Positions 1,570 to 20,524 of a stretch of 64,000 nt of DNA are shown one piece after another (within the stretch, counting starts at the first letter, position 1; each line of letters begins with the position of its first letter). Position numbers and translations under genes: made by a program. The DNA is from Promethearchaeota archaeon (GTDB taxonomy: Archaea > Asgardarchaeota > Lokiarchaeia > Sigyniarchaeales > SOKP01), in NCBI GenBank assembly GCA_030599585.1, contig JAUVNS010000010.1, positions 128,001 to 192,000 on the forward strand, given 5' to 3'. The notes under the pieces are model-generated. The model was given only the letters and a program-made list of their open reading frames with translations, had not been told where the DNA came from and did not search any database.

Positions 1570-2274
1570 TTAGTTAAGATACTCAAAAAGATGGTTAAAG
1601 TCGGTAAAATTAAAGGGCTTACGCAAATATCCTTCTGCTCCTGTATCTTCAATTCTTTTACTAACTTCAGATTCAGGAATTGCTGTAATATAAAAAATTG
1701 GAATCCCCTTTAATTTATCATTTAATTTGATTTGTTTGCATATTTCATATCCGCTAATATCTGGCAAAATAATATCTAATAGGATTATGCTTGGGGCTGA
1801 TCTGTTTAATTCTTCTAAACCTTTTTTACCAGTTGTCACTCCGATGGATGAGAATCCCTTAATATCAAAATAATCTGTTAAAACCATAATTGTAGATGTA
1901 TCATCTTCAATGATCAATACATCATAAGACATAGTTTCCGGCTCAATTTCACCTATAATGTCATTAATTTTATTTTCAAGGAATATGCTTTTACTATAGA
2001 TTTCTTTTATTCTCAATAACATATTTGGATCTAATTTCTCAGCTTCATTTTCAAGAATTAGTTGTGAAAAACCTTTAATTGAAGTTAATGGCTCCTTTAA
2101 ATCATGAGTAAATTTAGATATATTATCAATAAGACTAATTCTAGATTTAGAACCAATATAAAAATTCACAGCTTTCCTAATTAGCATAGAAATTGTTGTA
2201 AATTCATTATCGTCAACAAAAGTTTGCCAATTAGTTTTGGTTTCTTCTGAAACGAGAATACCGATTCTTTTCAT
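1570..2274 (-). CDS. Ribbon-helix-helix + HisKA(DHp) + receiver-domain protein, no HATPase domain
   Basis: N-term MKRIGILVSEETK...TISMLIRKAV fits RHH. THDLKEPLTSIKGFSQL is an H-box. C-term REC with EDD, LLDIILP, ITA and KPF. Confidence 0.8.
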   Translation of the reverse strand: MKRIGILVSEETKTNWQTFVDDNEFTTISMLIRKAVNFYIGSKSRISLIDNISKFTHDLKEPLTSIKGFSQLILENEAEKLDPNMLLRIKEIYSKSIFLENKINDIIGEIEPETMSYDVLIIEDDTSTIMVLTDYFDIKGFSSIGVTTGKKGLEELNRSAPSIILLDIILPDISGYEICKQIKLNDKLKGIPIFYITAIPESEVSKRIEDTGAEGYLRKPFNFTDFNHLFEYLN

Positions 2275-2364
2275 GTCGTCTGTTTTTTTATCATTCTTAG
2301 AAATTATTATCTCACTTCCTAAGGTATCCGTATTTATATAATTCTTTTTCTTAATTAAAAAGTT

Positions 2365-3327
2365 TCACAATAGATTTGAAATGCAACTCGTAAATAGCTC
2401 ATCTACACCCTCACCAGTAAAAGCTGAAGTTTCGTAATATGAAAAGTTATTGCGATAAGATAAATCTAATGCACTACTCTGAATCGATTCTCTATCATTT
2501 ATTAAATCGATTTTATTCCCTACTAAGTAGTAATTAGTTTGGGGGGTTTTTATAAAATTTCTCGCCTCTTCAATCCATTCATTTATATTTTCAAGAGTAG
2601 TAAGTTTCGAGTAATCGAATAAAATAATCACAACTTTAGCATCTTGATAATAATGCTTTCGAACTTTTTTAAAACTCTTAAGACCACCCATATCAAATAT
2701 CTGGAAATCTATACTCATATTTTTAGTGATTTCAAAAGATCTTTTGTTAACTGAAAGCCCTATTGTAGGTATATAGTTATTTCCAGTTTTACCTTTAAGA
2801 TACATATCAACTAAAGATGTTTTTCCTACTGAATCTGATCCAATTATGACAATTTTGTTAGGCTTTGAAAATGAAGAGGAATGATCATCAAAAATAATAT
2901 TACCATTTCCATTAATTTTTGGAAGCTCAATTGATGTTTCTATATTATTCAAAATATTAGATGCCTTTTCAGCAACGAGGTAGGAATATGGAATGAAATC
3001 ATTCAAATTAGAATATGGATCTGTAACCATAACAAACAATCCCTGATTATTTATACCCATTTCAACATAAAACAATTGATATTCATTCATATGAATAGTT
3101 CCACTCCCTAAAGAGATCTCTGCGTATTTCTTCATTTTTTCCAGGTTTTCTTCCACAATACTAATAATGACCTCAAAAATTTCTTCTTTGAATCCTTTAT
3201 TTGATTGTTGAGCCATTATCAGGCCATTTGAATCAACAATAAGAACTGCTATAAGATCCTTTATTTCTTTAACCAAATTATTTAGCAATTCGTTTAGTAA
3301 ATTCGTTTTTGACACAATTACAGACAT
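2365..3327 (-). CDS. Roadblock/LAMTOR-like domain fused to Rab/Ras-like small GTPase
   Basis: N-term LNELLNNLVKEIKDLIAVLIVDSNGLIMA (roadblock-like). G1 GSDSVGKTS, G2 PTIG, G3 DMGG, G4 NKID, G5 TSA. Confidence 0.88.
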   Translation of the reverse strand: MSVIVSKTNLLNELLNNLVKEIKDLIAVLIVDSNGLIMAQQSNKGFKEEIFEVIISIVEENLEKMKKYAEISLGSGTIHMNEYQLFYVEMGINNQGLFVMVTDPYSNLNDFIPYSYLVAEKASNILNNIETSIELPKINGNGNIIFDDHSSSFSKPNKIVIIGSDSVGKTSLVDMYLKGKTGNNYIPTIGLSVNKRSFEITKNMSIDFQIFDMGGLKSFKKVRKHYYQDAKVVIILFDYSKLTTLENINEWIEEARNFIKTPQTNYYLVGNKIDLINDRESIQSSALDLSYRNNFSYYETSAFTGEGVDELFTSCISNLL

Positions 3328-3365
3328 GATCCTTAACCTATGTAATGTTTTTGTTATATTAATTA

Positions 3366-4019
3366 TTAATTAACAGCTATTTCTAATTTTTCAAAAAATT
3401 TATCAAGAGTCTCAACTGAGGGAATAAAACAAAAGGTTCCGTAGAAATCTAAATCTTCAATAATCAACTTTGTTTTAATCAGTAACATAAAATCTAAATT
3501 TTCTGAACACATTGCTAAAAACTCATTAATTATTGCTCCTAATTTATCGAAAGCTAAGATGGGAACATCTGGAATATATTTAGTAGATAACAAGTTAGCA
3601 AGTGCACTAGTATAATGCCCTGCTAAAATATTACCAATTTCTACAATTAAACTGATAGTATATTCATCAAAATCATCTAAATTTGTTATCTCAACTCTCT
3701 TCTGTTTATTTTGTTCTGATAAAATGTCTATTAAATTGAAGATACTTTTTTTTGTGAAAATTTGTAAAATATTAAGATTAGTTTCCGCTTTAACGATTGA
3801 ATTTATTCCAAATACATCTGTATTAGAGCCCCCCAATTTATCACTTAATTTCCAAATGGGAATAATCTCGGCCGAAGTTAGAGAAACTTCTATTCTTTTG
3901 TCTAATAATTGCGATAAAGCGGTTATTGCATTACCGGATCCAATATTCCCAATCTCCATTAGAGTATCAATTTGGTATTGAGTCAATCGAAAATTTTCTT
4001 CTTCAGAATATCTTAACAT
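3366..4019 (-). CDS. cheC: CheY-P phosphatase CheC
   Basis: Two E-x-x-N sites (EIGNIGSGNA, EIGNILAGHY); che operon context. Confidence 0.9.
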   Translation of the reverse strand: MLRYSEEENFRLTQYQIDTLMEIGNIGSGNAITALSQLLDKRIEVSLTSAEIIPIWKLSDKLGGSNTDVFGINSIVKAETNLNILQIFTKKSIFNLIDILSEQNKQKRVEITNLDDFDEYTISLIVEIGNILAGHYTSALANLLSTKYIPDVPILAFDKLGAIINEFLAMCSENLDFMLLIKTKLIIEDLDFYGTFCFIPSVETLDKFFEKLEIAVN

Positions 4020-4118
4020 TTCTTAAAAATCCCTCATCTTTTATCACTAATTGTTAATTTTTTAAGCTCATTAATTGAGTGTGATTATTTCAATCTTTTT
4101 TTTAATTAAACATTATTT

Positions 4119-4724
4119 TTATAATAATTTTCTATAATATTCCTCGCCTGTTGGTTTCACATAAACGCTATTATCTTTTGTATCATAAATGATAATTCTA
4201 CCTCTTTTACCGCCGATATCTTTTCTAATAATCCTAATCTTAAGTCGTTCTAATTCAGATTTAACTACTTTTATGTTTTCTGCACCAATATCATTAAAAT
4301 GGTTTTGAAAAATTTTTGATCCCCCAACCATAACAGCTTTTATATTTTGACTTTCAGCTCCCTGATTAATCATATTTTTTACTAGATCCTTTACAGAACA
4401 GTCAGCAAATTTATGTGGACGTTTTATTTTTATATTATCCTTTATGTGATCTGAATGAGGGAGTAATATGTGAGACATTGCATAAATTTTATTTTGTAAA
4501 TCATAAAGAATTAACGCTATGCATGAACCTAACCCATATATTATTATTTTCGTTTGACTTATATACAATTTTGAATCAGAATTAATCAAAACATAATGAG
4601 CTATATGTAAAACTATCTCTCCTTTTCTATCTCCTTCAGTGATACAATCATTACGGTTTATGGAAGCAATTCCAATATTATTACTAAAAGATATCAGTTC
4701 ATTAGACATAGCTTTAATTTCCAT
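4119..4724 (-). CDS. cheD: Chemoreceptor glutamine deamidase CheD
   Basis: GLGSC catalytic Cys, SHILLP His, KFAD, VGGSKIF, DIGG.RGR. Exact start uncertain (overlaps cheB stop). Confidence 0.92.
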   Translation of the reverse strand: MEIKAMSNELISFSNNIGIASINRNDCITEGDRKGEIVLHIAHYVLINSDSKLYISQTKIIIYGLGSCIALILYDLQNKIYAMSHILLPHSDHIKDNIKIKRPHKFADCSVKDLVKNMINQGAESQNIKAVMVGGSKIFQNHFNDIGAENIKVVKSELERLKIRIIRKDIGGKRGRIIIYDTKDNSVYVKPTGEEYYRKLL

Positions 4725-5859
4725 ATTTTTTATCGAATTTTAATATGTAATTTTTAATCATACTATTTGGAGTTATAATTTGTGCTGCCCCACTTTCAGC
4801 AGCTACTTTTGGCATACCGTACACGATGCTCGTTTCTTTCGACTCTGCTATGGTCAAACCACCTTTTGATTTAATAGCTTTTAATCCTGCAACCCCATCA
4901 TTTCCTATACCTGTTAAAATGATACCTAATGCACGTTTTTTGAAAACTCGAGCTGCTGAAAAGAACAAAGGATCTGCCGAAGGTATACAATAATTTATTG
5001 GTTGTCCATCAAATGTTCTTATATAGGGTTTATTATTTTTAACTACAATTTCCGTGTGTTTTCCCCCTGGAGCGAGATAAACAATTCCGGAATTAATTTT
5101 TTCTCCATTTTTAGCTAATGTTACATCCAAATCAGTGTAATCATTTAAGGATTCAGCTAATTGTACCATAAATTGTTCATTCAAATGTTGGACAATTAAA
5201 ATCGGACTGTTTATTCCTTTTGGAATTTGGCTCAAAATTAATCTTAAAGTTTTAGGACCTCCAACACTAGTAGCAATAACAATAATATTAAATTTAAATT
5301 TGTCAATATCGACTTTATTTACTTTTTCCATACCAACTTTATCAAATGGTGGAATTTTTGGTTTTTGAACATAAGCTTTAATTTTTTCAGATTTTTGCTG
5401 ATTCTGATTCTTAAGTGAGGCATCGGGAAAATCCTTAATTGCTTTAGATTTATCTATCTTCTTGGATTTAGAAGCAAGTAGTACTTTTGAAATTAGTTCT
5501 TCTTTAAATTTTGGAAGTTCCACCTTCCAGACACCTCCTGGTTTAATAATATAATCAAAAGCTCCTAAGAGTAGTGCTTGAACAGATGCATCTAAAGTAA
5601 TTGGGTCTAATACTGAAAAGACAATTGTAGGTATGGGATAAATTTTCATGATTTGCTTAAAAGCTGCTAATCCATCCATCCTAGGCATTAAAATGTCAAG
5701 AAGTAGTACATCAGGCTTGAATTCTATCACTTTTTCAACTGCTTCTATACCATCTCGTGCTACATATACCACTTCAATCTCTTCATGCTCTGACAGCATT
5801 TCTGAGATGATTTTCCTCTGAAATGATGAATCATCTGCTATTAATACTTTTACAGTCAT
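4714..5859 (-). CDS. cheB: Chemotaxis response-regulator methylesterase CheB
   Basis: REC (ADDS, LLDILMPRMDG) plus methylesterase triad motifs TSVGGP, VQH and LTGIGNDG; VYGMP. Confidence 0.95.
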   Translation of the reverse strand: MTVKVLIADDSSFQRKIISEMLSEHEEIEVVYVARDGIEAVEKVIEFKPDVLLLDILMPRMDGLAAFKQIMKIYPIPTIVFSVLDPITLDASVQALLLGAFDYIIKPGGVWKVELPKFKEELISKVLLASKSKKIDKSKAIKDFPDASLKNQNQQKSEKIKAYVQKPKIPPFDKVGMEKVNKVDIDKFKFNIIVIATSVGGPKTLRLILSQIPKGINSPILIVQHLNEQFMVQLAESLNDYTDLDVTLAKNGEKINSGIVYLAPGGKHTEIVVKNNKPYIRTFDGQPINYCIPSADPLFFSAARVFKKRALGIILTGIGNDGVAGLKAIKSKGGLTIAESKETSIVYGMPKVAAESGAAQIITPNSMIKNYILKFDKKYGN

Positions 5860-5875
5860 AATCTAACAAAATTGG

Positions 5876-6919
5876 TTATCTAATCTTTAAATATATATGA
5901 TTTCGGGCATCTACTAATTTGAAATTACTGTAATTATTAAAAAGGGTCTCAGTTTTACCCAAAATTAGTAACCCCCCTAATTCTAAATGTCTATCGATTA
6001 TTTTAAGGAAACTATCACGATTTTCTCTATTAAAATATATTAAAAGATAACGACATAATATGATATCATATTTCCATCTATTCTGATGCCCTTTTGTTAT
6101 ATCTTCACAGAAAAAATCTACTTTTCTTTTAATGTCCTCAGTTAAAATATATTTATTTCCAAAATATTCATTTTCCTTACTAAAATATCTTTTTTCGAAG
6201 TACTTTGAAGTCTCTTTAACTGAATCATCATTATATACGGCTTTGTGTGCTTTATCAATTGCCAACTTATCTATATCAGAAGCAACAATTTTGTATTGAG
6301 GGAATGATTTAATTTGTTTTTCAAGATTATTCAGAATCATAGCTATCGTATAAGGCTCTTCACCAGTAGCACATGGACAGGACCATATTTTAATTGATTT
6401 ATTATTTAATTTAGGATTGTTTATTTTTTTATAGAGTGATGTCTCTTTTACGTAATATTTATTTTGTACAAGGTAACGATTTGAGTTTAACCTTTTGCTT
6501 GAAATTCCTTTAATTGAAGACTTGTTAACTTTTTCCTTATTTTTTTGTTCATTTTTGTTCTTTTTTTTTATTTTTGATGGATCGGGTTTAAAATCATAAA
6601 ATAAAGTATTATTTCTAGAATTAAAACACTCAATAAATATATTATTTAATCGTTCAAACAAATCCCAGTTTCTAAAGAAGTAAGTATAATTTATACTAAA
6701 TCGATTAAAAAAAATTTCTAATTCTTTCGGATTAGAATTTATATAACTGTAATACTCTTCTATTGATTTGCATTTTACGCGTATCATTCTAGCTTTTATC
6801 CTCCTTTCAATAAAATTTCTTCTGTAATAGTCGAAATTTAATTTTGTCTCTTGATGTAATAAGCTAATTAACTTCTTATAGGGATTTTCCTTTATTTTTA
6901 TTTGATCAAATGTTAGTAT
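5876..6919 (-). CDS. cheR: Chemotaxis methyltransferase CheR (probable ATA start at 6919, upstream of track ATG 6787)
   Basis: TYFFR, IWSCPCATGEEPYT, ASDID, YDIILCR. Frame stays open 5' of 6787, encoding KKLISLLHQETKLNFDYYRRNFIERRIKAR (CheR N-domain), and GGTGAT precedes the ATA. Confidence 0.9.
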   Translation of the reverse strand: MLTFDQIKIKENPYKKLISLLHQETKLNFDYYRRNFIERRIKARMIRVKCKSIEEYYSYINSNPKELEIFFNRFSINYTYFFRNWDLFERLNNIFIECFNSRNNTLFYDFKPDPSKIKKKNKNEQKNKEKVNKSSIKGISSKRLNSNRYLVQNKYYVKETSLYKKINNPKLNNKSIKIWSCPCATGEEPYTIAMILNNLEKQIKSFPQYKIVASDIDKLAIDKAHKAVYNDDSVKETSKYFEKRYFSKENEYFGNKYILTEDIKRKVDFFCEDITKGHQNRWKYDIILCRYLLIYFNRENRDSFLKIIDRHLELGGLLILGKTETLFNNYSNFKLVDARNHIYLKIR

Positions 6920-6930
6920 TTTCGATCACC

Positions 6931-7467
6931 TTAACTTTCGAGTATTTTATCAATCCTAACAATTCTTCTTTCAATATGTTCGAATGAATATTTTATATGT
7001 AATTGAATCTCTCTTATTTCTGATATTATCTTCTTAATTTGAGATTTCTCAGATTTTGATAACCTAAATTCTGCTTGATTGTTATAAATTTTATTTAATG
7101 GAGTTCTATCCTTCAAGATCTGCTCCTTAACCATACTCTTTCTTGATTGCCCTGGATAATCTAAATCTTGATTCCTATCGTTAATTTCTTCTAAAATAGT
7201 TTTGAAGTCTTCAGGCTCATGATTTTGTTTAATTACTTCATATTTAAATTTATAAAAATCTTTCTTACTCTTTAATTTTCCCGCCCAGTTTGCCGCAATA
7301 TATCGATGGAATAAGCGAGAATTACGACCGGCCCATATCCAGATAAGGTTTAAGTTTTTATCTATAACTAAATAAACACCATCATCCCCAAAAAGTTGAT
7401 CAGGTGCTTTTGTCAAAGTCTCTCCAATAACTTGATAAGTGGAATCATAATAACTGGATTTTACCAT
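6931..7467 (-). CDS. Single gelsolin-homology domain + C-terminal coiled coil
   Basis: DGVYLVID...IWIWAGRNS...YIAANWAGKL...EVIKQNHEPEDF matches the gelsolin repeat pattern. C-term amphipathic helix. Strong SD GGAGGT. Confidence 0.8.
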   Translation of the reverse strand: MVKSSYYDSTYQVIGETLTKAPDQLFGDDGVYLVIDKNLNLIWIWAGRNSRLFHRYIAANWAGKLKSKKDFYKFKYEVIKQNHEPEDFKTILEEINDRNQDLDYPGQSRKSMVKEQILKDRTPLNKIYNNQAEFRLSKSEKSQIKKIISEIREIQLHIKYSFEHIERRIVRIDKILES

Positions 7468-7598
7468 TATTTTTACCTCCTTTAGCCAAATATCTTCTCT
7501 TGAATAAATTTTATTTATTACTATTTTGATCGTCTAAACTATAAAAAAAAATTTAGAAAGATAATTATTCATCATGGGACCTTATCTTTATTATTGCT

Positions 7599-9524
7599 TT
7601 AAGCATAAAACTCTAATAAAGCATCCAATAACTCTTGTAATGTGTCGATATTTGGAATATATAAGAATGTCCCAGTTACTTTGAAATCTGTTATAATAAC
7701 ATTCGTAGTAATTACTAAAGAGAGTTTCTTAAGCAATCCAATTTCATCTCTTAAAATACTGAACAGCTGTTTCCCTGTATCAAGGTGTATATCAGGGGGG
7801 TCTGTCATTAACCGTATTCCTAATAAGTCACCAATTGCGCTAATATAATTACTTCCGAGAATATGACCTAATTCACTCATAGCACTGCGATAAAGCTCAG
7901 GAAAGTCATCAACTGTCTTAAATTTCTTTCGTAAGTCAATTTGTGTTTTCTTTTTATCATCAACGATAATTGATGTTAAATCTATCATATCTTTAACGCT
8001 AAAAATTGTAAGAACCGTTGCTTTAGTTTTTCCTGTGACGTTACTCCAAGCGACTAAGAGTTTATCAGTTGCTCGACTTAGTGTATCAGCATACTTATCT
8101 AATTCAACCATTTCTACCGAAGGTATATTAATAACTACTCTTTGATTTACCATTTGAGCTAGAGCATTAGCGGCATTCCCTGCTCCAATATTTCCTATTT
8201 CTTGTAATGCATCTCTCTGAAGCTCTGTTAATTTGATTGATTCCAAATTAAGCGATAAATCAGTTGTTGCTTCATCATTCGGTGCCTTAAATGTGACTCC
8301 TAATTTTCTGAACATCCCTTCCAGAGTTCCTTTGTCAGGTATAAAGAAAAACACTCCTGTTAGCTTAAAATCACTTATTTTTATCGTGGTTTTAATTAAT
8401 ACTACATATTTCGATATCGATTGCAATTCTTTACCTAAAAATTCTCCTAATAATCCAGAATCACTCATAGCAAATTCCGGAATGTCTATCATCATTTTAG
8501 TACCCGTTAAATCAGCTAGTGCAGATACATAATGACCAGCCATAATGTTTCCCATCTCAGTTATAGTAGATATAGCAAACGAATCAAGGTCCTCTTTGGA
8601 ATTGATTTTTTCAGGATCAAATTTAGAGTCATCACCAGTTAAATTAGCAACTAATTTCAATAGCGGCTTCATTTCAAAGATGTTAAGAATCGTTGATTGA
8701 GAAGGTTTATTGACATGGCAAAATATTCCACAAACCTTTTCACTAGATCCTTGAAACTGTTCTGATAATTTATCGCTGGAAATAATCCCTACATCTGTAA
8801 GTTGAACATCGATTTTTTTCTTTATTAAAACAGATAAAGCGGTCACAGCATTACCTACACCAATATTTCCAATTTCTTGTAAAGTATCAAGTTGATATTC
8901 ACTTAGTTCGTACTCCTTTTTCGGAGTTGGGCTTTTAGCTTTTTTATGGAGAACAACATTTTGAGATTTCGATTTTTTCTCCTTTATTTTCTTCGGGAGT
9001 ATTCCAGGTTGAGAAAGCGCTTTTGGAATCTTCTCTTGTTTTTTAAGCTGTTTAATTTTCAAGTTAGATAAATACCATTCGATAAGTGAATCTAAATCTA
9101 ATAAGATTAATGGTTGATCATTTAGCGTTCCAATCAATTTTACTAGATCCAGGTCTAAGTTTGTTTTTACAATTGTACTGTTTTGTCTAAAATTTCCTAA
9201 AGAAAATTTCTTAACACCATGGACATCATCCACTAATAAACCTAAATTTAAACCTTTATACTCTAATAGAAGTATTCTAGAATTTTCGGATAAATTATAT
9301 TCCGTTTTATTTCCATATATTATATGCCTTAGAGATAATACTGTATACACTGTACCCCTAATATCAATTATTCCTAATACTGATTCTTCAGCTAAAGGTA
9401 TTGGAATAATTTCATTATTTGGAACATAAATTTCTTTAACATTTTCTACTTCAAGTAAATATTGTTCATTTTGAACCTCTATTACTACTGAAGTGATACT
9501 ATTCATATTTTCAGCTTCCATCAT
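7599..9524 (-). CDS. CheW-CheC-CheC fusion protein
   Basis: N-term CheW (IPIPLAEESVLGIIDIRG, GLLVDDVHGV), Lys-rich linker, two CheC domains (EIGNIG/EMGNIM; EIGNIG/ELGHIL). Confidence 0.9.
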   Translation of the reverse strand: MMEAENMNSITSVVIEVQNEQYLLEVENVKEIYVPNNEIIPIPLAEESVLGIIDIRGTVYTVLSLRHIIYGNKTEYNLSENSRILLLEYKGLNLGLLVDDVHGVKKFSLGNFRQNSTIVKTNLDLDLVKLIGTLNDQPLILLDLDSLIEWYLSNLKIKQLKKQEKIPKALSQPGILPKKIKEKKSKSQNVVLHKKAKSPTPKKEYELSEYQLDTLQEIGNIGVGNAVTALSVLIKKKIDVQLTDVGIISSDKLSEQFQGSSEKVCGIFCHVNKPSQSTILNIFEMKPLLKLVANLTGDDSKFDPEKINSKEDLDSFAISTITEMGNIMAGHYVSALADLTGTKMMIDIPEFAMSDSGLLGEFLGKELQSISKYVVLIKTTIKISDFKLTGVFFFIPDKGTLEGMFRKLGVTFKAPNDEATTDLSLNLESIKLTELQRDALQEIGNIGAGNAANALAQMVNQRVVINIPSVEMVELDKYADTLSRATDKLLVAWSNVTGKTKATVLTIFSVKDMIDLTSIIVDDKKKTQIDLRKKFKTVDDFPELYRSAMSELGHILGSNYISAIGDLLGIRLMTDPPDIHLDTGKQLFSILRDEIGLLKKLSLVITTNVIITDFKVTGTFLYIPNIDTLQELLDALLEFYA

Positions 9525-9544
9525 TATTTTTCATTCTCCTATTA

Positions 9545-10390
9545 TTATTTATTTTCTTTTAACATAATTCCTTTCCAAATAAGCTCAACTTCTTGTTCTT
9601 CGCCACTTATTTCCGAGAGGTAATTTTGCTGGACAAATATTGAAATTTGACCTCCATCCGAGTACTCATAAACGTAATCAAGTACATCATCTATAGATGT
9701 AAAATTAAAACCAGCAATTTTCAGCTCTGAACTACCAACTAACAATAAATCCTCACCATTAAAAGGACGGTCTTCATCATTCCATTCAACCCAAATTTCA
9801 GAAGCAATTTCAAGATCGTTTATAACTAAATCCTTTTCCAGGGGGATATTACGATAAGTCTTATAAGCAGCAAAAATAATTCGATTTGGAACTTTTCCCG
9901 TCTTTTTAAAGTATTTTTTTATAGCTTGTACCCCAGAATTAAAATTATTTAAATCAAGAATATCATAACAGACGACATAGGTCAATTCACCATCTTCCAT
10001 CTCTATAACGAAGTCCAAATTATCATTAGATTCATTGGAAATATTAACCTGGAAATTCTCAATTATAAATCCTTGAACATATTTAAAATATTGATAAAAT
10101 CGCCATTTTACCCCAAAATTTGAATTATCTTCTCTGCTGATAAAAATCTGATATAAAGATTTTAGTTGAGATGCTTTTAGGCTTTTTAAGTCATCAATCG
10201 TGTCATAGTCGTCACCAATATTTTTTAAGTTCATTCTTGCTGATTGTTTCTTTTTAGTAGGTTTACTTGAAAGTTCATCCAAAAAGATTTTAAGTTCTCC
10301 TTTTGTAAATGACGGTTTAATTTGGCTTACCAAATAATTTAAATATTTATCCGATTTATCTTGTAAAGTTTCATAATATTGAAAATTCAT
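9545..10390 (-). CDS. Hypothetical protein in che operon (possible degenerate PD-(D/E)XK-like fold)
   Basis: 281-aa ORF, SD AGGAG, tight spacing to neighbours. LDFVIE..DGELTYVVC only loosely resembles a restriction-endonuclease-like core. Confidence 0.6.
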   Translation of the reverse strand: MNFQYYETLQDKSDKYLNYLVSQIKPSFTKGELKIFLDELSSKPTKKKQSARMNLKNIGDDYDTIDDLKSLKASQLKSLYQIFISREDNSNFGVKWRFYQYFKYVQGFIIENFQVNISNESNDNLDFVIEMEDGELTYVVCYDILDLNNFNSGVQAIKKYFKKTGKVPNRIIFAAYKTYRNIPLEKDLVINDLEIASEIWVEWNDEDRPFNGEDLLLVGSSELKIAGFNFTSIDDVLDYVYEYSDGGQISIFVQQNYLSEISGEEQEVELIWKGIMLKENK

Positions 10391-10427
10391 TTAATCTCCT
10401 CTTTTTTTATTTATTTTTTTTTTGTTA

Positions 10428-12464
10428 TTATCCATAAAAGTAGGATTCTAATTCCGTAAAATTTACATCCTTTCCATCAATAGTCTTCAAATAATACATT
10501 ATTTCCATTTCCTGATAAGGCGTTATATTTGGAATAGTGAAATTTATCGTTTGATCGTGATTATCACTAGATTTAGTCATTTTATGTTCTATGTTTGATG
10601 ATATAAGCTTAAAGGATTCTGGAATTGTATCTGATATATCAATGTCTTTAATGAAGGCATTTGATTTGTTTTTGATTATAATATTTATTGCAAATTCATC
10701 ACTACTTCTACCTGGAAATATTTCTTTTCCAATCATGACGTTTCGGCGTTTATGTGAAATGTTTAAGGAAGGAATCGCATCTCTATCCAAATTTTCTTTT
10801 ATAACATGATATTCTTTAATCCCTTCATTAGCACTTTCCTGGTATTTAGGAAAATATGCATTAATTTCTAATGGAAAATCATATGATTTCTCGTTATCCG
10901 GTGAAATTGCCCTTAACGGATATTGAATCTCTAAAGTATCATTTTTTTCCAATGAATATTTAAGATTATTTTGAGATAGATTAACTTCAAGCTCTAATAC
11001 ATGCGTCATAGAAGGATCATCATTGTTGGGGGTTATATTTACAGTATATGAATCGGGGGTAATTGTTCCAGAATTATTAGTCAAAGTATAACTTGTATTA
11101 TCCATGGGAAGTAGAAAATCTTCAGGTACTACTTCTTTTACTACAACAGCATGCATAGGAATTGAACTGTTGTTTTTAATAAAGATTTTATTGGTAATCA
11201 CTGATTTTTCGAAAGATTTAATCTCGGTTTCTGGAATAAGTTTTTCTATTTTAAAATCAACTACTTCATAAACTTCATCAGCAAAATAGGTTTTTATTGT
11301 TGAATTTTTCTTAAAATTATAATTTACTGAATATTCGATTTTTCTAAAGAAGGATGGTTCAATTTCATCCTCTGTTTCCCATTCGTCTGTCTGATAGTTT
11401 TCGCCAGAATTTATTAGCGTTTTATTATTTGAAGTTTTAAAGTCTAAGTTTAAATATTCTTCTGTTTTGGATTTATCTGTAATTAGAATTGTTCTTAAAT
11501 CTAATGAATAATCACTGTGATTTTCAAAAATTAAGGAACATTTCCAATGATTGGGTCTGTTATTAACTTCTGATTTGTTAATTGCATGAAAGGCATGAGA
11601 GAAAGCCGTAAATTTATTGACATTAACCTCTGAAAATACATTATCTTTAACTTTAAATGAAGTTTCTATAATTCCCGTTCTAATTTTTTGATTTTTTTTA
11701 GGCATTACTTTAATCGAAAATTGTATAATTGCGTTTTCTCCTGGATGTAATTTATTCACTGAGCATTCAATAGAATTTCTTCCTATAACTAAGTTCTTAG
11801 ATGTTTGATCAGATACTTGAAAATCGTAAAAATCCTTGAAAATAGCTTTTCTAAATTCAATCTCTTCTATAATTGATGTACTAATATTTCTAATTACAAT
11901 AGTATACCTTATTAGATTCTCTCTACCTGATAATAGAATATTAGTTCTCTTTAAATGTAAGGTTTTTATGTCCTCCTCAGAGTTTTCAAATTCAGTTTTA
12001 ATCGATTCTAATTTATCATTCAATATCTCAATTTCTTCATCAATACGTATCAAATCTGAGATCTCCTCAGTATTAATAAGATCAAATTTAATATTTTTAC
12101 TAGTTTTAGGTTCAAAAATTCCTAGAACAACTTCATTCTCCTCTCCTATACTCGTTTGTTTAGAACCAGAAAATTCTAAGCGCGTATCCCAGATTCGATC
12201 CTTATTAGAGTTGTTGTTAACTGATAAATTGCCATATCCATGGAGAGATTTTCGAGATCTGTTGTAGTTATATTGAAAATCTAGCACCTCTTCATTTACA
12301 ATTGAAATTTCAGAAACTTTTTTGACAGACTCCGTATATATCTCTTGGGTGCTTCTATCGTCATATAGATCTCTTGAATGGGCTGTTTGAGATAAAGATA
12401 ATCCGATTAAATTAAATCCGGACTTAGTTTTCAATTCATCGTGTTTAATTTTTTTAAATCCCAT
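10428..12464 (-). CDS. Cytoplasmic protein with tandem Ig-like beta-sandwich repeats
   Basis: Repeated units such as YTIVIRNIS..IEEIEF, IFIKNNS..MHAVVVKEVVPEDF and IIIKNKS..IKDIDISDTIPESF (DUF11/CARDB-like). No signal peptide or TM helix. Confidence 0.65.
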   Translation of the reverse strand: MGFKKIKHDELKTKSGFNLIGLSLSQTAHSRDLYDDRSTQEIYTESVKKVSEISIVNEEVLDFQYNYNRSRKSLHGYGNLSVNNNSNKDRIWDTRLEFSGSKQTSIGEENEVVLGIFEPKTSKNIKFDLINTEEISDLIRIDEEIEILNDKLESIKTEFENSEEDIKTLHLKRTNILLSGRENLIRYTIVIRNISTSIIEEIEFRKAIFKDFYDFQVSDQTSKNLVIGRNSIECSVNKLHPGENAIIQFSIKVMPKKNQKIRTGIIETSFKVKDNVFSEVNVNKFTAFSHAFHAINKSEVNNRPNHWKCSLIFENHSDYSLDLRTILITDKSKTEEYLNLDFKTSNNKTLINSGENYQTDEWETEDEIEPSFFRKIEYSVNYNFKKNSTIKTYFADEVYEVVDFKIEKLIPETEIKSFEKSVITNKIFIKNNSSIPMHAVVVKEVVPEDFLLPMDNTSYTLTNNSGTITPDSYTVNITPNNDDPSMTHVLELEVNLSQNNLKYSLEKNDTLEIQYPLRAISPDNEKSYDFPLEINAYFPKYQESANEGIKEYHVIKENLDRDAIPSLNISHKRRNVMIGKEIFPGRSSDEFAINIIIKNKSNAFIKDIDISDTIPESFKLISSNIEHKMTKSSDNHDQTINFTIPNITPYQEMEIMYYLKTIDGKDVNFTELESYFYG

Positions 12465-12527
12465 TATTTTTTTCCTCTTTTTTATATTTATTTGTGAATT
12501 TGCTCTTTTTTGGTTAAAAAAATCTAT

Positions 12528-14624
12528 TTAAAATTTAAATGTTCGAATTTCATTTGTTTTTGAAGTTATAATTGTTAATACATCGAGAATTAAGCAGACA
12601 GAGCCATCATCTAAAATAGTTGAACCCAATATATCTCTTGAATCAGAATAATTAGACTTAAATGGCTTGACAACAATATCTGTTTGTTGCATTATATCAT
12701 CGACTATAAAAACTGCTGAATTCATATCATCCTTTTTACATAAAATTGCAACTTTAGATTTTGAATGTAATCTCAAATCTTCGTTCGTAGCATCTTTAAA
12801 TTGAAAATGTTGCTCTAATTGGATTGCAGGAATTAACTTTGAATTAAATTTGTAATAAAGAGTATTTTCTACATATTCTGCCTTTTCTTGTTTAAATTGA
12901 AATATTGTTTCTATGTATTCTATTGGAATAGCAAATAGCTCTCCTGCTACACGAAGTAATTGTGCTTTAAGGATTGCTCTAGAAAAAGGCACTATTAAAG
13001 TGAAAGTAGTCCCAGCATCCTTTTCTGAATGAATTTTTAGAGATCCACCTAATTCTCTTATTTTTTCTACTACAATCGCTAGCCCTATTCCTCTACCTGA
13101 AATCAAATTAGCTCCTGAAAGAGTAGAAAAATTAGGTTGAAGAATATACTGGTTTAAAACATTCGTATTTAAATGCTCTACTTCTTCTTTTAAAAATAAG
13201 CCTTTTTGTACAAGAACATCCTTAACACGATCATAATCAATCCCTTGTCCATCATCTGTTACTTCGATATATATTGATCCAGCACTCCTGTATGTCTTCA
13301 GTCGTAATAATCCTATTTGATTTTTAGTTTTCTTCATCCTTAATTCAGGAGATTCAATTCCATGATAAACAGCATTTCTAAGAAGGTGAACTAATGGGGA
13401 ATTTAGCTCCTCTAAGATTTTTCTATCAATTTCAACATTAGTACCTTCTAAAATAAATCTTATTTTTTTCCCTGTTTCTTTTGCTACATCGCGTATTAAT
13501 CTTTTATACTTAACAAACGTTGTCTCAACTCTTACAAGTTTTAATCCAAAGATTAATTCTTGAATATCCAAGAATGGTTTCTCCATATTGCTAACAATGG
13601 CACCTAAAACTCTATCTTGTCTTTCTTTTAGAGTCCTTGTTATTTGATTCTTTAAAATTACAATTTCTCCAAAATAATTCATTAATTTTTCAAGAATATC
13701 GACATCAACTTTTACACTAGAAATCTTAGTCCCTTCATCTGAATAATCTTCAAATGCATGCGAACTTGTTTCAATTTCACCATCAATGAATTCATCATCA
13801 TCCTCACTTTCAACATGATATGACTCTCTGCTACGCTTAGTTGCTTTTTTTTCCAATATTCGCGTCCATTTTAAGTCAAATTCGTTAAGTAATCCTTCAA
13901 ATTCCTTATTTTCTAGTTTGTTAATTGCTTTATTTTCAATCTCTAAAATTTCATTTAAGATTTTTACTATTTCTTTATCTGTTGAGTGGCTAATATAATA
14001 TATCTCAAAATCATTAATGATTTCACCTTGTTCTAATGATTCTGGATCAGGGACACCCCAACATATCTGACCTTTTTCAGTCAAAGCCCTAAAAATAATA
14101 AAAAGTCGAACTTTCTTAAAGGCACATGTAGATTGAAGGCGAATATATACTTTATAAAATTTATTTGATTTGTCACCTAAAATAGCACTAAATTTGTTCG
14201 GTTGTATATGTTTTATAAAAGACATTTCTGAACTACTATCAAATGAGTCAAAACTGTCTCTTAAATCAAGTAGTAAGCTCGGATCTATGTCAGTCATATC
14301 ACCATTTTTAACATTATTTAGAACACTACGAAGAACTTCAAGGCTTTCAAAAAGCATATTAATAATCGAATCACTCAAATCGACTGAATCTTGATTATCT
14401 TTTATGCTTTGTAAAAAACTCTCAAAGTAATGGCAAAATTTAGAAGTATTATTAAAACCTGCCATTGCTGTTAATCCTTTTAAGGTATGAAAGGTGTAAA
14501 AAAGATTTTGAATTGGCTTCAACGCTTTTGGATTTTGTTCAATTTTCAATATTTCTCCTTCTGTTTGCAGGATGAGATCTTCTGTCTCACTTACAAAGAG
14601 CTTCATATCGTCTTGAGATATCAA
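12528..14624 (-). CDS. cheA: Chemotaxis histidine kinase CheA
   Basis: Hpt FHTLKG, P2 domain, HLLRNAVYHGIE, DDGQGID, SGRGIGL, C-term CheW-like P5. TTG start after GGTGAT. Confidence 0.96.
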   Translation of the reverse strand: MISQDDMKLFVSETEDLILQTEGEILKIEQNPKALKPIQNLFYTFHTLKGLTAMAGFNNTSKFCHYFESFLQSIKDNQDSVDLSDSIINMLFESLEVLRSVLNNVKNGDMTDIDPSLLLDLRDSFDSFDSSSEMSFIKHIQPNKFSAILGDKSNKFYKVYIRLQSTCAFKKVRLFIIFRALTEKGQICWGVPDPESLEQGEIINDFEIYYISHSTDKEIVKILNEILEIENKAINKLENKEFEGLLNEFDLKWTRILEKKATKRSRESYHVESEDDDEFIDGEIETSSHAFEDYSDEGTKISSVKVDVDILEKLMNYFGEIVILKNQITRTLKERQDRVLGAIVSNMEKPFLDIQELIFGLKLVRVETTFVKYKRLIRDVAKETGKKIRFILEGTNVEIDRKILEELNSPLVHLLRNAVYHGIESPELRMKKTKNQIGLLRLKTYRSAGSIYIEVTDDGQGIDYDRVKDVLVQKGLFLKEEVEHLNTNVLNQYILQPNFSTLSGANLISGRGIGLAIVVEKIRELGGSLKIHSEKDAGTTFTLIVPFSRAILKAQLLRVAGELFAIPIEYIETIFQFKQEKAEYVENTLYYKFNSKLIPAIQLEQHFQFKDATNEDLRLHSKSKVAILCKKDDMNSAVFIVDDIMQQTDIVVKPFKSNYSDSRDILGSTILDDGSVCLILDVLTIITSKTNEIRTFKF

Positions 14625-14668
14625 ATTATCACCTTCACCTATTTCCTTCTTATTTTTATTTTATTTTT

Positions 14669-15046
14669 TTATTTTCCAGCAACTCTCTCTAAAACATCTT
14701 CGATTTGGTCTGCTTTAAAGGGTTTCTGAATAAAATCCTTTGCGCCCTTTTTAGCAGCTTCTAAAACTAACGCCTCTTGACCCAAGGCAGACACAATAAC
14801 AATAATTGCATCGGGATCGAAACTTAAAATTTTCTCTGTAGTTTCTATACCTCCTTGTTCAGGCATAACTAAATCCATTGTTACTAAGTCAGGCTTGAGC
14901 TCTTGATACAAAGAAACTGCTTCAACACCGTTTCTAGCTTCTGCGATAACTTCACCAATTTCTGTTTTATTGATGATCTTCTTCAACATATTTCGTGTAA
15001 ATTGGGCGTCGTCAACTACCAAAATTTTCTTTTTATTTTTTGTCAT
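14669..15046 (-). CDS. cheY: Chemotaxis response regulator CheY
   Basis: VVDDAQFTR, TMDLVMP, VSALGQ, FIQKPF; lies between cheW and cheA. Confidence 0.95.
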   Translation of the reverse strand: MTKNKKKILVVDDAQFTRNMLKKIINKTEIGEVIAEARNGVEAVSLYQELKPDLVTMDLVMPEQGGIETTEKILSFDPDAIIVIVSALGQEALVLEAAKKGAKDFIQKPFKADQIEDVLERVAGK

Positions 15047-15595
15047 TTAATCAACTCTTTTTTTTTGCATTTTTATTTCTTCTTTTTTAATTGAAATATA
15101 GTCAATTTCATTAAGCAAATTGCTTAAATCAAGTAAAATTCTAGGTCTATCCTTGAATTTTATTATACCTTTAATATTTTCCATACCCACACTTGTTTGG
15201 AATATTGGACTCAATCCCACAATATTTTCTGCATTGACATGAGCAATACTAACAATTTGATCAGCAAAAAACCCGATAAAAACTCCAGCTATATCCAAAA
15301 TAATAATATATTTCTTTTTCCTCTTAGTTTTTACTTTAGATAAAGCGAGTTTTGATTTATATAAATAATTCTCGTGTAAATTTAGAACTTTTTCAAGGTT
15401 TAATATGTGAATTATTTCTCCTCGATAATTGTAGATGCCATCGATGAAATCAAGGCTCTTCGGTAGTTTTCTAATTTGACCCGATCTTACAATTTCTTTT
15501 ATTGTGGAAAGTTCAATTGCAAATTCTTCTAAACCAATTTCAAAAATTATAACCGATTTTTTTTCTAATTCATTTTTTATTTGTTCTTGATACAT
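15047..15595 (-). CDS. cheW: Chemotaxis coupling protein CheW
   Basis: IFEIGLEEFAI..IKEI, LPKSLDFIDGIYNYRGEII, GFFADQI, RILLDL. Confidence 0.92.
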   Translation of the reverse strand: MYQEQIKNELEKKSVIIFEIGLEEFAIELSTIKEIVRSGQIRKLPKSLDFIDGIYNYRGEIIHILNLEKVLNLHENYLYKSKLALSKVKTKRKKKYIIILDIAGVFIGFFADQIVSIAHVNAENIVGLSPIFQTSVGMENIKGIIKFKDRPRILLDLSNLLNEIDYISIKKEEIKMQKKRVD

Positions 15596-15615
15596 TTTTT
15601 CTCACATCTATTTTT

Positions 15616-16464
15616 TTAAATTTCAAAATACAAATCAATTTTTTTTTTAAATTTATGGAAAGGTGCTATATCTCCGGTAAAATCAATTAGATGCTCCTTG
15701 TACTGTTCAAGGAAATCATCAGCTATTAGATACATGTATCTTTTGATTAATGAATTCAGGTTTTCAACCAAAAAAGCAAAAATAACATTCTTTTTTGTTA
15801 TCATATAAAAACGTTGATTACCGAAGTTAATTTCTTTCAGTTCTGCCCCGGATTCTTGTCCGATGATTTCTTTTGAAAATGAAAATAGCGCAGATATAAA
15901 CCCTCCAATGTGAACTTCCTTATTTGATATAAGTTTTCTGTTTTGATTGATTTTTGAAATATAAGGGCATCCATTTGCCCCTATTATGAACACACCAATA
16001 ATTCCCTTTGTTTGGGGTATTGATATTGTCTTGTTACACGTATTAATTACTTCAGAAATAGGTGTATTTAACCGTATTTGGTTTGTTATTTTTCTTGTAA
16101 AAAAATATAATTTTGGAAAATTAATAGTATGATCTTTCTCTGTCATATAGAGAATTACAATAGTATTATTATTATGTTGGAAATAATGAATAAAAATTGA
16201 AAAATCATCTAAAGGAATTATCGAATTCCCCTGCTTTTGATTATTAATTTCTTTCTTGCACAGTTCAATTACATTTTGTATAAGTGGTGTTCCTATTCCT
16301 TTTTGAAATAATACGTGAATTTTATCATTGTTATTAAATTCAGAAATTTTTATTAACCCATATCCGAGCATCTGCAAAATTTCTTTTGATTCTATTGTAT
16401 CCAAATGATTATTCATTTGAATTTTTCTATTTTGATGTTTTTCCATAACAATCATTAAATTCAC
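15616..16464 (-). CDS. Longin-like domain protein (first gene of che run)
   Basis: C-half GIIGVFIIGANG.PY...GGFISALFSFSKEI...LKEINFGNQRFY...IADDFLEQY...FTGDIAPF is typical of Asgard longin/sedlin-like domains. Start uncertain. Confidence 0.7.
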   Translation of the reverse strand: MNLMIVMEKHQNRKIQMNNHLDTIESKEILQMLGYGLIKISEFNNNDKIHVLFQKGIGTPLIQNVIELCKKEINNQKQGNSIIPLDDFSIFIHYFQHNNNTIVILYMTEKDHTINFPKLYFFTRKITNQIRLNTPISEVINTCNKTISIPQTKGIIGVFIIGANGCPYISKINQNRKLISNKEVHIGGFISALFSFSKEIIGQESGAELKEINFGNQRFYMITKKNVIFAFLVENLNSLIKRYMYLIADDFLEQYKEHLIDFTGDIAPFHKFKKKIDLYFEI

Positions 16465-16821: not shown

Positions 16822-17037
16822 ATGGAAGACTTTTACTTTGCTAAGGGAAGTAAGAATTTAGAAGAATGTAGTAGTTCGGAGAAATTTGTCATAATTTCTT
16901 TTCTTAGAGAAGAGTTAAACCTTATATCTAAAATTAAATGGTTTAGAATTAATGCTTTTAGAAATAAGGCTCAAATTTTCTCATTAAAATTAAAAACTTA
17001 TTTATTTGATAATCCTGGAGTTGTGTATAATTGGTAA
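16822..17037 (+). CDS. Small hypothetical protein coupled to tfb
   Basis: SD AGGTGA before ATG; its stop overlaps the tfb start. Confidence 0.55.
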   Translation: MEDFYFAKGSKNLEECSSSEKFVIISFLREELNLISKIKWFRINAFRNKAQIFSLKLKTYLFDNPGVVYNW

Positions 17038-17912: not shown

Positions 17913-17915
17913 AAA

Positions 17916-18287
17916 ATGATGGCATCCGTTTTTATTGTTGAAGATGACGTTTTCATATTAAGATTATATGAAATTTTTTTAAGATCGAGCAAATTTTCTG
18001 TAATTGGAAAGGCAAAAAATGGAGATGAAGCTGTAGCTTCTTATAAATTAATGAGTACAAAACCTGATTTGATAATTATGGACAATCGTATGCCAGTTAA
18101 AAGTGGTATTGAAGCATTAAAAGAAATTCTCGAAATTGATAGTCAGGCAAAAATTATGATAGTGAGTGCAGATCGTAGTATTGAAAAAATAGCGAAATCT
18201 GTTGGAGCTGTAGCGTTTATGGAAAAACCATTTTCGTTGAAAATATTAGTTGAGAATATTAATAATGTTATTACAAATTGTGTTTAA
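17916..18287 (+). CDS. Stand-alone CheY-like receiver protein
   Basis: VEDD, IMDNRMP, VSAD, FMEKPF. Confidence 0.9.
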   Translation: MMASVFIVEDDVFILRLYEIFLRSSKFSVIGKAKNGDEAVASYKLMSTKPDLIIMDNRMPVKSGIEALKEILEIDSQAKIMIVSADRSIEKIAKSVGAVAFMEKPFSLKILVENINNVITNCV

Positions 18288-18595: not shown

Positions 18596-20524
18596 TTGGC
18601 ATTATTAACATTACTACAAGCAGATATAGATGAAGTTATTAAGCAGTTACAAGTACTAACAGGCTTAAAATTTGATAATTATTTATATAATTTTATTGAA
18701 AAAAGAATAATTTATCGCATTCAAAACTTAAAATTAAATTCCCACGTGGAATATTTAAAATATCTTAAGTCGAATCCGAAAGAAATTGAGGAATTTCTTG
18801 AACGATTTACCATTAATCACACTTATTTTTTCAGAGATTTAGATGTTTTCAAAGCATTAGAAAATTATTTTAAGAATTATAAAACAAAATCGAAAATACG
18901 CGTATGGTCTGCCGCTTGTGCAACGGGAGATGAAGCCTATTCAGTTGCATTGATTTTAGATAAATTAAGCAAACGCGTTAAAAATTTTTCTGATTTTAAA
19001 GTAATAGCGTCTGATATTGATAAAAGGGCAATTGGAGTTGCCAAAAAAGGAAAATATTCTGAATTTTCTTTACATACCACTCCTGATGAATACATTCAAG
19101 AATACTTCAAACGAAAGGAAACACCTTACAGTCCAGAGTTTAAATTGGATGAAGTCTTAATGAAGAAGGTTGAATTCATCGAAGAGGATATAACTATAGG
19201 ACATAAAAAGAAGATAAAATATGACATCGTTTTATGTAGAAATTTCATGATTTATCTTAATAAAAAAGCGCGTAATGAACTCTTAAGGATCATCGAATCC
19301 AAAATGATTAATGGGGGTTTGTTGATTTTAGGGTTAAGCGAATCTTTATTAGGTGTAAAAAGTAGCTTTAAGCCAATTGATATTAAGCATCGTTTCTTTA
19401 TTAAAAGAAGTTCCAATTTCATTGAATCTAATAAGAAACAAATTGAAGAATTAATAAAAAAGACCAAGATACAAAAGCCAATTTTCATAGAGAATAATCT
19501 AACTAATTTTGATGAGCTTGAATTAAAAAATAATATTAATGAAACAACTCTAAAAATAGAAGAAGAAAAATTAAACAAACAGATTAAATACAAATCGATT
19601 GAAGATCAACGAAAGACCATTGAAAAAAGAGCACATGGATTAATTAAAAGAGAACTGATTATACAAGAACAAGAAAAGATTTTATTAAAGAATCTTTCAT
19701 ATTTAAAAAAAAGAGAGAAGGATATATTAAAAAAATCGAAATATATGGAAAAATTAATTCTATTTATTAAAGAACAAGAAAAGGAATTAAATCTCTTCAT
19801 TAGGAATATGGAGTTCTTTTCCAATCAATTAGAAGAAAAGGAAAATCACTTGAATTATAAAGAGAAGCAAATAAATCATCAATTCAATCAAATTGGTTAT
19901 TATACAAATCAATTATTACAAAAAGAAAAAACACTTCCAAAAAAAGAACATAAACATATAGGTGACTATTCACTTGAGGTTGTGGATGAGAAACGAATTG
20001 ATCACATAATTAATCCTAATAAAGATCTAGAATTAACTATTCCAGTGGGATATTATGGAGTTTTGAACTTGCATATTCAAAATGAAACTGCTACTAAGTT
20101 CGGCGTTAATTCTTTAGGAGCAGGAATAGCCTTGATATTAAAGGACGATTCTAATAAAATATATGCATTTTCTCATTCAAGATTTCCCAATTCTTCAGCT
20201 TCAAAGCAAGGATATCATCTCGTTTCTCCTCATTCTTTTATAAATACTTCTGTAATAAGTTTGTTAAATACAATGCTTTATCATGGTGCTGAAAAGAATG
20301 AAATTAAAGCAATTGTTATAGGAGGCGCACGATTGTTTAATGATTTTGATTTAACATTTCAAGAGAATATTGATTCTATCAAAAGAGAATTAAAGAAAAA
20401 TAGTATTTTAACTGAAATCGAAGATTTGGGAGGCTTAAGTGAAAAAGCAGTAAAGTACGATGTAATAAATAATTCTCTTTATGTAAAAAGAGCTTGGGAA
20501 TTTGAATTTAGGAAAATTAATTAA
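18596..20524 (+). CDS. CheR methyltransferase - coiled coil - CheD-like fusion
   Basis: N-term CheR (TYFFRD, VWSAACATGDEAYS, CRNFMIY), central E/K-rich heptads, C-term CheD-like (SLGAGIAL, SHSRFP, IGGARLF, EDLGG). Confidence 0.88.
   Translation: MALLTLLQADIDEVIKQLQVLTGLKFDNYLYNFIEKRIIYRIQNLKLNSHVEYLKYLKSNPKEIEEFLERFTINHTYFFRDLDVFKALENYFKNYKTKSKIRVWSAACATGDEAYSVALILDKLSKRVKNFSDFKVIASDIDKRAIGVAKKGKYSEFSLHTTPDEYIQEYFKRKETPYSPEFKLDEVLMKKVEFIEEDITIGHKKKIKYDIVLCRNFMIYLNKKARNELLRIIESKMINGGLLILGLSESLLGVKSSFKPIDIKHRFFIKRSSNFIESNKKQIEELIKKTKIQKPIFIENNLTNFDELELKNNINETTLKIEEEKLNKQIKYKSIEDQRKTIEKRAHGLIKRELIIQEQEKILLKNLSYLKKREKDILKKSKYMEKLILFIKEQEKELNLFIRNMEFFSNQLEEKENHLNYKEKQINHQFNQIGYYTNQLLQKEKTLPKKEHKHIGDYSLEVVDEKRIDHIINPNKDLELTIPVGYYGVLNLHIQNETATKFGVNSLGAGIALILKDDSNKIYAFSHSRFPNSSASKQGYHLVSPHSFINTSVISLLNTMLYHGAEKNEIKAIVIGGARLFNDFDLTFQENIDSIKRELKKNSILTEIEDLGGLSEKAVKYDVINNSLYVKRAWEFEFRKIN

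Follow-up and report, generated by a model that had tools for sequence, protein, structure and literature searches.

A conserved chemosensory operon of Loki-type Asgard archaea includes five co-inherited non-Che proteins, candidates for an output or adaptor layer

Here, we report a chemosensory operon in which the genes for a Che pathway are interleaved with five genes of other kinds. It lies in a 64-kb stretch of a Promethearchaeota genome (positions 128,001-192,000, forward strand, of contig JAUVNS010000010.1, assembly GCA_030599585.1), referred to as the window, whose coordinates are used throughout. The five extra proteins belong genetically to the Che pathway: their genes keep the same order across dozens of species, and they occur only together with CheA. 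We tentatively read the operon, with somewhat less than even confidence, as a chemosensory system specific to the Loki-type lineage of Asgard archaea, in which a Bacillus/archaeal-style Che core is joined by five co-inherited cytoplasmic proteins acting as an output or adaptor layer. An earlier note on this DNA had proposed a candidate system leading from Che signaling to actin or polarity. That proposal is partly supported: neither a loss of linkage in relatives nor a complete archaellum plus CheF, both of which would have spoken against it, was found, and it is plausible that Che signaling drives actin or polarity.

Results

The operon consists of 14 consecutive minus-strand open reading frames (ORFs) at 1570-16464, coordinates that agree exactly with those of the earlier note. 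Eight genes form the Che core, one terminal gene encodes a protein with a ribbon-helix-helix (RHH)-like N-terminus followed by HisKA and receiver (REC) domains, and five are non-Che genes. The latter encode X282 (operon gene 1, 15616..16464), Ig678 (10428..12464), U281 (9545..10390), Gel178 (6931..7467), and a roadblock-GTPase fusion (2365..3327). All 14 proteins are predicted to be soluble. Co-orientation and tight spacing of the genes hold as first described, whereas the claimed maximum gap of 131 nt does not. With first-start ORFs the intergenic distances across the run are 90, 38, 99, -11, 16, 143, 131, 20, 37, 63, 44, 0, and 20 nt, and the largest, 143 nt, is contingent on the start chosen for cheR. 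A scan for sigma-70 promoters and terminators gave results at shuffle level, with a bacterial-type model that is not applicable to archaea.

Pfam assigns nine of the 14 genes and upholds every Che assignment made from the translations alone. These are CheW (15047..15595; CheW, 84.8 bits), CheY (14669..15046; Response_reg, 94 bits), CheA (12528..14624; five domains), a CheW-CheC-CheC fusion (7599..9524; CheW, 79.6 bits, and CheC, 115 bits in three stretches), CheR (5876..6787; 138 bits), CheB with REC and methylesterase domains (4714..5859; CheB_methylest, 182 bits, and Response_reg, 69.5 bits), CheD (4119..4724; 84 bits), and CheC (3366..4019; 62 bits). The CheA architecture comprises P1 Hpt, P2, P3 dimerization, P4 HATPase, and P5 CheW-like domains, and this protein is the sole H-kinase_dim match in the genome. 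The phospho-acceptor residues of CheY, read in translation, are intact (DD, D58, S86, and K108), and the protein is 70-78% identical across loci. In all loci with upstream flank, the gelsolin gene is immediately preceded by the CheW-CheC-CheC gene.

A transmembrane methyl-accepting chemotaxis protein (MCP) with a 4HB sensor is encoded nearby on the same strand (21228..22823; MCPsignal, 103 bits, and 4HB_MCP_1). It carries hydrophobic segments and is the single PF00015 match of the whole genome. In G031, from a different family of the same taxonomic order, an MCP adjoins the first gene of the operon. The components of a two-component Che pathway are therefore all present: a CheA with Hpt, dimerization, HATPase, and CheW-like domains, a CheW, a CheY receiver, and an MCP, along with the adaptation enzymes CheR and CheB and the Bacillus/archaeal-type CheC and CheD. 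The Che core is complete, and the system reaches past the 14-gene run to which the earlier note had confined it.

The ninth Pfam-assigned gene, the last of the run (1570..2274; HisKA, 24 bits, and Response_reg, 70 bits), is upheld in its HisKA-REC part. Its HisKA domain has an H-box and no ATPase domain, and in translation the receiver residues are present. The gene is not kept at this position in other loci, where a 451-aa REC-CheB is found instead. The RHH-HisKA-REC architecture has been reported earlier for Lokiarchaeum GC14_75 (PMC5847659).

In relatives, the association of the non-Che genes with che genes shows strong conservation. Among 185,579 species genomes scanned, there were 35 gelsolin-family loci, every one of them in a che cluster. 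Chance does not account for the arrangement, since about 35 species-level Asgard genomes share this gene order. The 22 fully flanked loci show the succession X282-CheW-CheY-CheA-Ig-U281-CheWCC-Gel, and shorter loci agree with it as far as they reach. Downstream of Gel, where the flank allows, the order is (CheR)-CheB-CheD-CheC as at this locus, and the GTPase gene is present in 21 of the 28 other loci with enough downstream flank. In a subclade with its adaptation genes elsewhere, the GTPase gene directly follows the gelsolin gene (L041, L048, and L050). On the complete chromosome CP070831.1 (G046) the operon is split into halves about 1 Mb apart, with CheW-CheC2-Gel-CheR...GTPase near 1.44 Mb and U281 near 0.36 Mb.

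Co-inheritance with CheA is equally strict. CheA was found in 43 of 301 sampled Asgard genomes. In the family to which this genome belongs, CheA and U281 occur in the same 15 genomes of that sample, and the other 54 have neither. U281 profile matches are confined to this family; the 28 genomes from other families in which CheA was found have none. For the accessory proteins, pairwise identity correlates with that of CheA (r 0.91-0.97) and averages 0.51-0.60, vs. 0.48-0.65 for Che proteins; the accessory proteins are as constrained as the Che proteins themselves. Since relatedness alone correlates any co-inherited genes, the r values show joint inheritance without replacement and nothing more. 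The value for CheY (0.43) was left aside, with mixed receiver paralogues as the probable cause. Within its own genus the operon is rare, being present in this genome and in G345 (66-73% nucleotide identity) and not in the 29 other members searched. Mis-binning of the contig was considered; as the congener G345 carries the operon, the contig need not be foreign.

Gelsolin domains regulate actin, and Asgard gelsolins act on actin. The claim of a gelsolin domain in the operon was upheld by a family profile searched against PDB sequences and by Foldseek on an AlphaFold2 (AF2) model. In Gel178 (178 aa), a single gelsolin domain at approximately residues 10-100 is joined by a variable linker to a conserved, coiled-coil-like C-terminal helix of 40 residues. 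The profile, built from 30 homologues, matched the actin-bound ProGel of Thorarchaeota best (7c2f, E 2.3e-7), with Heimdall 2DGel, villin, and CapG after it. The AF2 model (pLDDT 77) likewise has 7c2f as its best Foldseek match (E 1.6e-6, TM 0.74 on target), with gelsolin, CapG, villin, and adseverin next. Foldseek gave 54 matches at E<=1e-3, and among the 47 matches listed all are gelsolin-family chains. Gel178 thus has a gelsolin-homology fold, and the long helix of its gelsolin domain is nearly invariant across the family. Full-length homologues number 170, at about 50-57% identity, and every one is an unnamed protein from an Asgard metagenome-assembled genome (MAG). Elsewhere in the genome are further gelsolin paralogues and four actin-family genes, the top one scoring 442 bits; a lokiactin gene lies at C4:4909-6021.

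The 320-aa GTPase was described at first as a roadblock-GTPase. Its Ras part is clear (Ras, 119 bits; Roc, 86 bits; Arf, 66 bits), and the protein is Ras/Rab-like. The roadblock/LC7 part is weak in this copy, at 13.4 bits against a Robl_LC7 cut-off of 23 bits, and is recognized in three orthologues at 24.7-26.5 bits. In the alignment the G1, G3, G4, and G5 motifs are intact (GxxxxGK[ST], DxxG, NKxD, and SA), and Leu occupies the position of the Ras catalytic Gln. The protein therefore combines Ras-superfamily G motifs with a roadblock domain, even if the roadblock match is weak in this copy.

For X282 (282 aa), called longin-like in the earlier note, support is indirect. The protein itself has no Pfam match, and a sequence search against PDB returned none. 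A profile of 20 orthologues retrieved distant relatives (E 1e-9 to 1e-4) aligned at approximately residues 146-271, and these carry Intu_longin_1 or Fuz_longin_1 in the aligned stretch, at or just above the cut-off; one of them is a longin-Arf/Ras fusion. X282 may thus consist of an N-terminal domain, whose relatives match no Pfam family, and a C-terminal longin domain. Its nearest named atlas clusters are Roadblock/longin (0.80-0.83), which is a lead only. Aligned with the roadblock domain of the operon GTPase by hhalign, it gives a topologically sensible, non-significant alignment (E 0.18). A double-longin structure was considered and is not supported, as the comparison of the N-terminal with the C-terminal half is non-significant (E 0.27).

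The gene described as an Ig-repeat gene does encode beta-sandwich repeats, of DUF11 type (Pfam DUF11, 37 bits). Ig678 (678 aa) has no hydrophobic segment and no signal peptide, consistent with a cytoplasmic protein, and its profile has a sole match in PDB, AbpX (E 0.019). It is kept at its position in all loci with flank. In one subclade (L040, L041, L046, L048, and L050) the counterpart is 1000-1060 aa long vs. the usual ~675 aa; this subclade includes the three loci in which the GTPase gene comes right after the gelsolin gene. U281 (281 aa) is an orphan: it has no Pfam match and no PDB sequence match, and its atlas rows are at chance level. Its AF2 model (pLDDT 79, pTM 0.76) suggests a restriction-endonuclease-like center and a beta-rich C-terminal domain. 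In VIA, nearly all of the 50 best matches are PD-(D/E)xK nucleases, with borderline Z scores (<=7.7), and the Foldseek E is 6e-3 at best. No clear PD-(D/E)xK catalytic motif is found among the invariant residues.

Archaeal chemotaxis normally reaches the archaellum motor via CheF. The absence of cheF and arl genes, first remarked upon for the 64 kb, could be extended by Pfam to the whole genome (4.85 Mb, 100% complete, 8.9% contamination), and a search for a complete archaellum plus cheF was negative both here and in 29 other carriers. CheF (PF04283) has no match in this genome, the 29 other carriers, or the 301 sampled Asgard genomes, though a very diverged CheF may have escaped the model; as a control, the model does match in three euryarchaea. 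Archaellin (PF01917), FlaD/E (PF04659), and T2SSF (PF00482) have no match in the genome, nor do archaellin and T2SSF in the 29 other carriers at the sensitivity of Pfam. PF01917 does recognize the archaellins/FlaB of Lokiarchaeum ossiferum (PMC9834061 supplement). Absence of an archaellum is reasonably supported, whereas absence of any filament is not. A survey of 677 Asgard genomes reported scattered type IV filament (T4F) components and about 100 likely archaella (PMC13705601).

One candidate motor gene was rejected. A diverged 725-aa FlaI-like T4F ATPase is encoded beside an Arf-like small GTPase on contig C15 (L064, C15:19000-35000; positions 6758-9723 of that locus, minus strand). It yields the best score against the ArlI model in the genome, 95 bits, far below the cut-off of 550, and no membrane platform or pilin gene is adjacent. 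Positions 12283-15012 (plus strand) of the same locus encode a 909-aa protein with a DEAD/ResIII helicase and a caspase domain (Peptidase_C14, EACC1-associated type).

Other signaling genes surround the operon. Divergently from it, at 17031-18287 (plus strand), lie a TFIIB paralogue with a zinc ribbon and two cyclin-like repeats and, 3 nt after it, a second stand-alone receiver (17916..18287; Response_reg, 75.6 bits). The pair could feed a two-component signal into a basal transcription factor. In locus L050, too, a homologue of the TFIIB gene is found near the operon. Next on the plus strand is a CheR with CheR_N fused to a CheD-like domain (18596..20524; CheR, 153 bits; CheR_N, 28 bits; CheD, 41 bits). 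The operon cheR of G031 encodes a long 736-aa form of the same type. On either side of the che region, at 3-1562 and 23737-26379 (both plus strand), are genes for multi-PAS histidine kinases that lack receivers; the former converges on the RHH-HisKA-REC gene, and both have many paralogues across the genus.

Discussion

We favor, as said, a reading in which the five extra proteins would be the missing output or adaptor layer of the Che pathway. In such a system, phosphorylated CheY (CheY-P) would bind one of the accessory proteins, which would take the part of CheF or FliM. A small-GTPase switch may consist of the longin protein together with the roadblock-Ras fusion. Guanine nucleotide exchange factors and GTPase-activating proteins usually build on longin and roadblock domains, and the operon GTPase lacks the catalytic Gln, so it would need a partner. 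Gel178, tethered by its conserved C-terminal helix, could bind lokiactin and bias the dynamics of its filaments, thereby influencing protrusion or the polarity of the cell. Asgard cells that crawl in an actin-dependent manner on dynamic actin-filled protrusions have been filmed in a study published in 2026, and gelsolins and an ARF GTPase co-purify with lokiactin; chemotaxis is not mentioned in that study (PMC13716822). The more specific proposal that CheY-P acts directly on lokiactin dynamics or polarity, via the gelsolin protein and/or the longin and roadblock-Ras switch, for directed crawling or protrusion growth, appears to us rather improbable as it stands.

Several observations weigh against an actin- or polarity-directed output. 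The gelsolin fold of Gel178 is no proof of actin binding, the protein being about 23% identical to ProGel, and neither Ig678 nor U281 is linked to the cytoskeleton or to GTPases. The GTPase gene is missing from seven of the 28 loci with enough flank and is therefore no obligatory output. None of the crawling Asgard species studied so far is among the carriers found, and no cultured Asgard strain is represented in the 35 loci. The missing motor, too, says less than it seems to. CheF is missing from all 301 sampled genomes, and its absence is therefore not specific to this operon; archaellin matches are rare in the phylum and absent from nearly all CheA carriers of other families. The T2SSF model misses the TadC-like platforms of Asgard archaea in published tables (PMC9834061 supplement), so that its negative result is weak evidence. 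The lack of a recognizable motor is a general Asgard pattern or a limit of sensitivity. Finally, a scaffold or positioning role would explain the linkage to che genes equally well.

This last alternative survives best, and we regard it as unlikely though still a serious contender. The accessory proteins would be structural or positioning parts of the chemoreceptor array and not its output: Ig678 and U281 would serve to build or stabilize the baseplate, and Gel178 would fasten the array to filaments of actin. Placing or partitioning of arrays would fall to the GTPase and the longin protein, as it does to the ParA-like PpfA/ParC in bacteria. The accessory genes indeed lie among the array genes (CheA, CheW, and CheW-CheC2) and not at the end of the operon. 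The coiled-coil-like helix of Gel178 would suit docking on helical bundles, and strict co-inheritance with CheA is the expectation for partners of fixed stoichiometry. Two proteins free of enzymatic or cytoskeletal signs, Ig678 and U281, fit such a role as well. On the other hand, no known array requires such parts, and other Asgard che clusters lack the accessory genes. A purely structural role would also leave the pathway without any output, and a gelsolin domain together with a GTPase switch would be over-elaborate for mere anchoring.

We consider it doubtful, to about the same degree as direct action on lokiactin, that the operon is a Che pathway of the "alternative cellular function" kind, controlling trafficking or remodeling, adhesion, cell-cell contact, or gene expression in place of movement. 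The longin protein and the roadblock-GTPase would then act as in trafficking, and the RHH-HisKA-REC protein and the TFIIB-adjacent receiver would relay signals to transcription. Longin, roadblock, and Ras/Rab/Arf-like GTPase proteins are chiefly trafficking regulators in eukaryotes, and the position of the RHH-HisKA-REC gene at the end of the run, with the TFIIB-REC pair divergently upstream, agrees with a transcriptional branch. So does the single MCP of the genome agree with a function other than movement, being unusual for navigation. However, the RHH-HisKA-REC gene does not keep its position in other loci, the full set of CheR, CheB, CheC, and CheD is typical of gradient sensing, and the conserved gelsolin gene suggests actin and not vesicles.

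An ordinary unrecognized filament (a diverged archaellum or type IV-like pilus) as output, with X282 or U281 perhaps as a diverged CheF-like adaptor and the gelsolin and GTPase genes as co-regulated passengers, is very unlikely: the failure of T2SSF on Asgard TadC-like proteins, the diverged FlaI-like ATPase, and the scattered T4F components and likely archaella of the Asgard survey leave some room for it, but archaellin, FlaD/E, and CheF are missing from the genome and CheF and archaellin from the 29 carriers, though PF01917 detects L. ossiferum FlaB, the ATPase scores 95 bits against 550 and has no membrane platform beside it, and passengers would not, across genera, stay in one order, occur exclusively together, and be equally constrained.

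Che genes were described in 2022 in 27 of 97 Loki/Heimdall MAGs, together with putative receptor arrays in L. ossiferum (PMC9834061). Our literature search on Asgard and lokiarchaeal chemotaxis, with most subscription-journal papers outside its coverage, found no paper describing this operon. What the operon contributes is a set of five concrete candidate proteins, genetically bound to the Che core in genomes without a detectable motor, one of them with an actin-regulator fold and two from the GTPase-switch toolkit. The question of what Asgard chemotaxis controls thus becomes directly testable through a short candidate list. If the proposed output is real, two-component sensing was wired to actin/GTPase polarity before eukaryotes arose, and actin machinery of a eukaryote-like kind is under the control of a prokaryotic chemoreceptor array. 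If the actin link fails, the proteins would still be a new set of Che accessory components.

Comparison with known systems

Other Asgard che clusters, such as that of Ca. Lokiarchaeum ossiferum (PMC9834061), likewise contain the Che core genes. In four other Asgard families CheA is about 25-27% identical to the one described here, and neither Gel178 nor U281 nor the roadblock-GTPase has a homologue in the respective loci (8-20 kb); the X282 profile gives one weak match only (E 1.5e-4). The che clusters of another Asgard family contain, between CheY and a CheW-like gene, a gene for a 1150-aa protein with six CheW domains (L065, 11226-14678; L067, 11302-14739; both minus strand).

The Che core, including CheC and CheD, is the same as in archaeal F1-type chemotaxis, known from Halobacterium and Haloferax (MCP, CheA/W/Y/B/R/C/D, CheF, and ArlCDE), and the organization as an operon with an adjacent MCP is also shared. 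In contrast to the F1-type systems, which have CheF, ArlCDE, and archaellin, none of these was found in this genome or in the 29 carriers, and here five extra conserved genes lie inside the operon and CheW is fused to two CheC domains.

Among the accessory proteins, Gel178 has the same fold as the Asgard gelsolins ProGel and 2DGel from Thor-, Loki-, and Heimdallarchaeota (7c2f, 7c2h, 7whf, and 7whg), which are its best matches. Its family is separate from theirs in having a unique C-terminal helix and in occurring only inside che operons. The C-terminal domain of X282 is linked through its relatives to longins of the Fuz/Intu type, and so to the longin/roadblock platforms represented by Mon1-Ccz1, CPLANE Fuz/Intu, and Ragulator/MglB. 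The operon GTPase bears a roadblock domain, and longin- or roadblock-GTPase fusions are also known from Asgard archaea. To our knowledge, no such GTPase-regulator platform occurs in, or is controlled by, a chemotaxis operon.

In Myxococcus xanthus, the Frz che system controls motility via the small GTPase MglA and the roadblock protein MglB, so that a Che pathway is tied to a Ras-superfamily GTPase and a roadblock protein with no rotary motor, as may be the case here. Membership in the MglA/MglB system was considered for the operon GTPase and rejected: its best families are Ras, Roc, and Arf, its DxxG motif is intact, and its roadblock domain is fused and not a separate MglB. GTPase and roadblock are here one polypeptide encoded inside the che operon, and gelsolin-domain and longin proteins are added to the set. 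We therefore regard Frz-MglA/MglB as the nearest functional analogy to the operon, one that would concern the logic of the pathway and not membership in the same family of systems.

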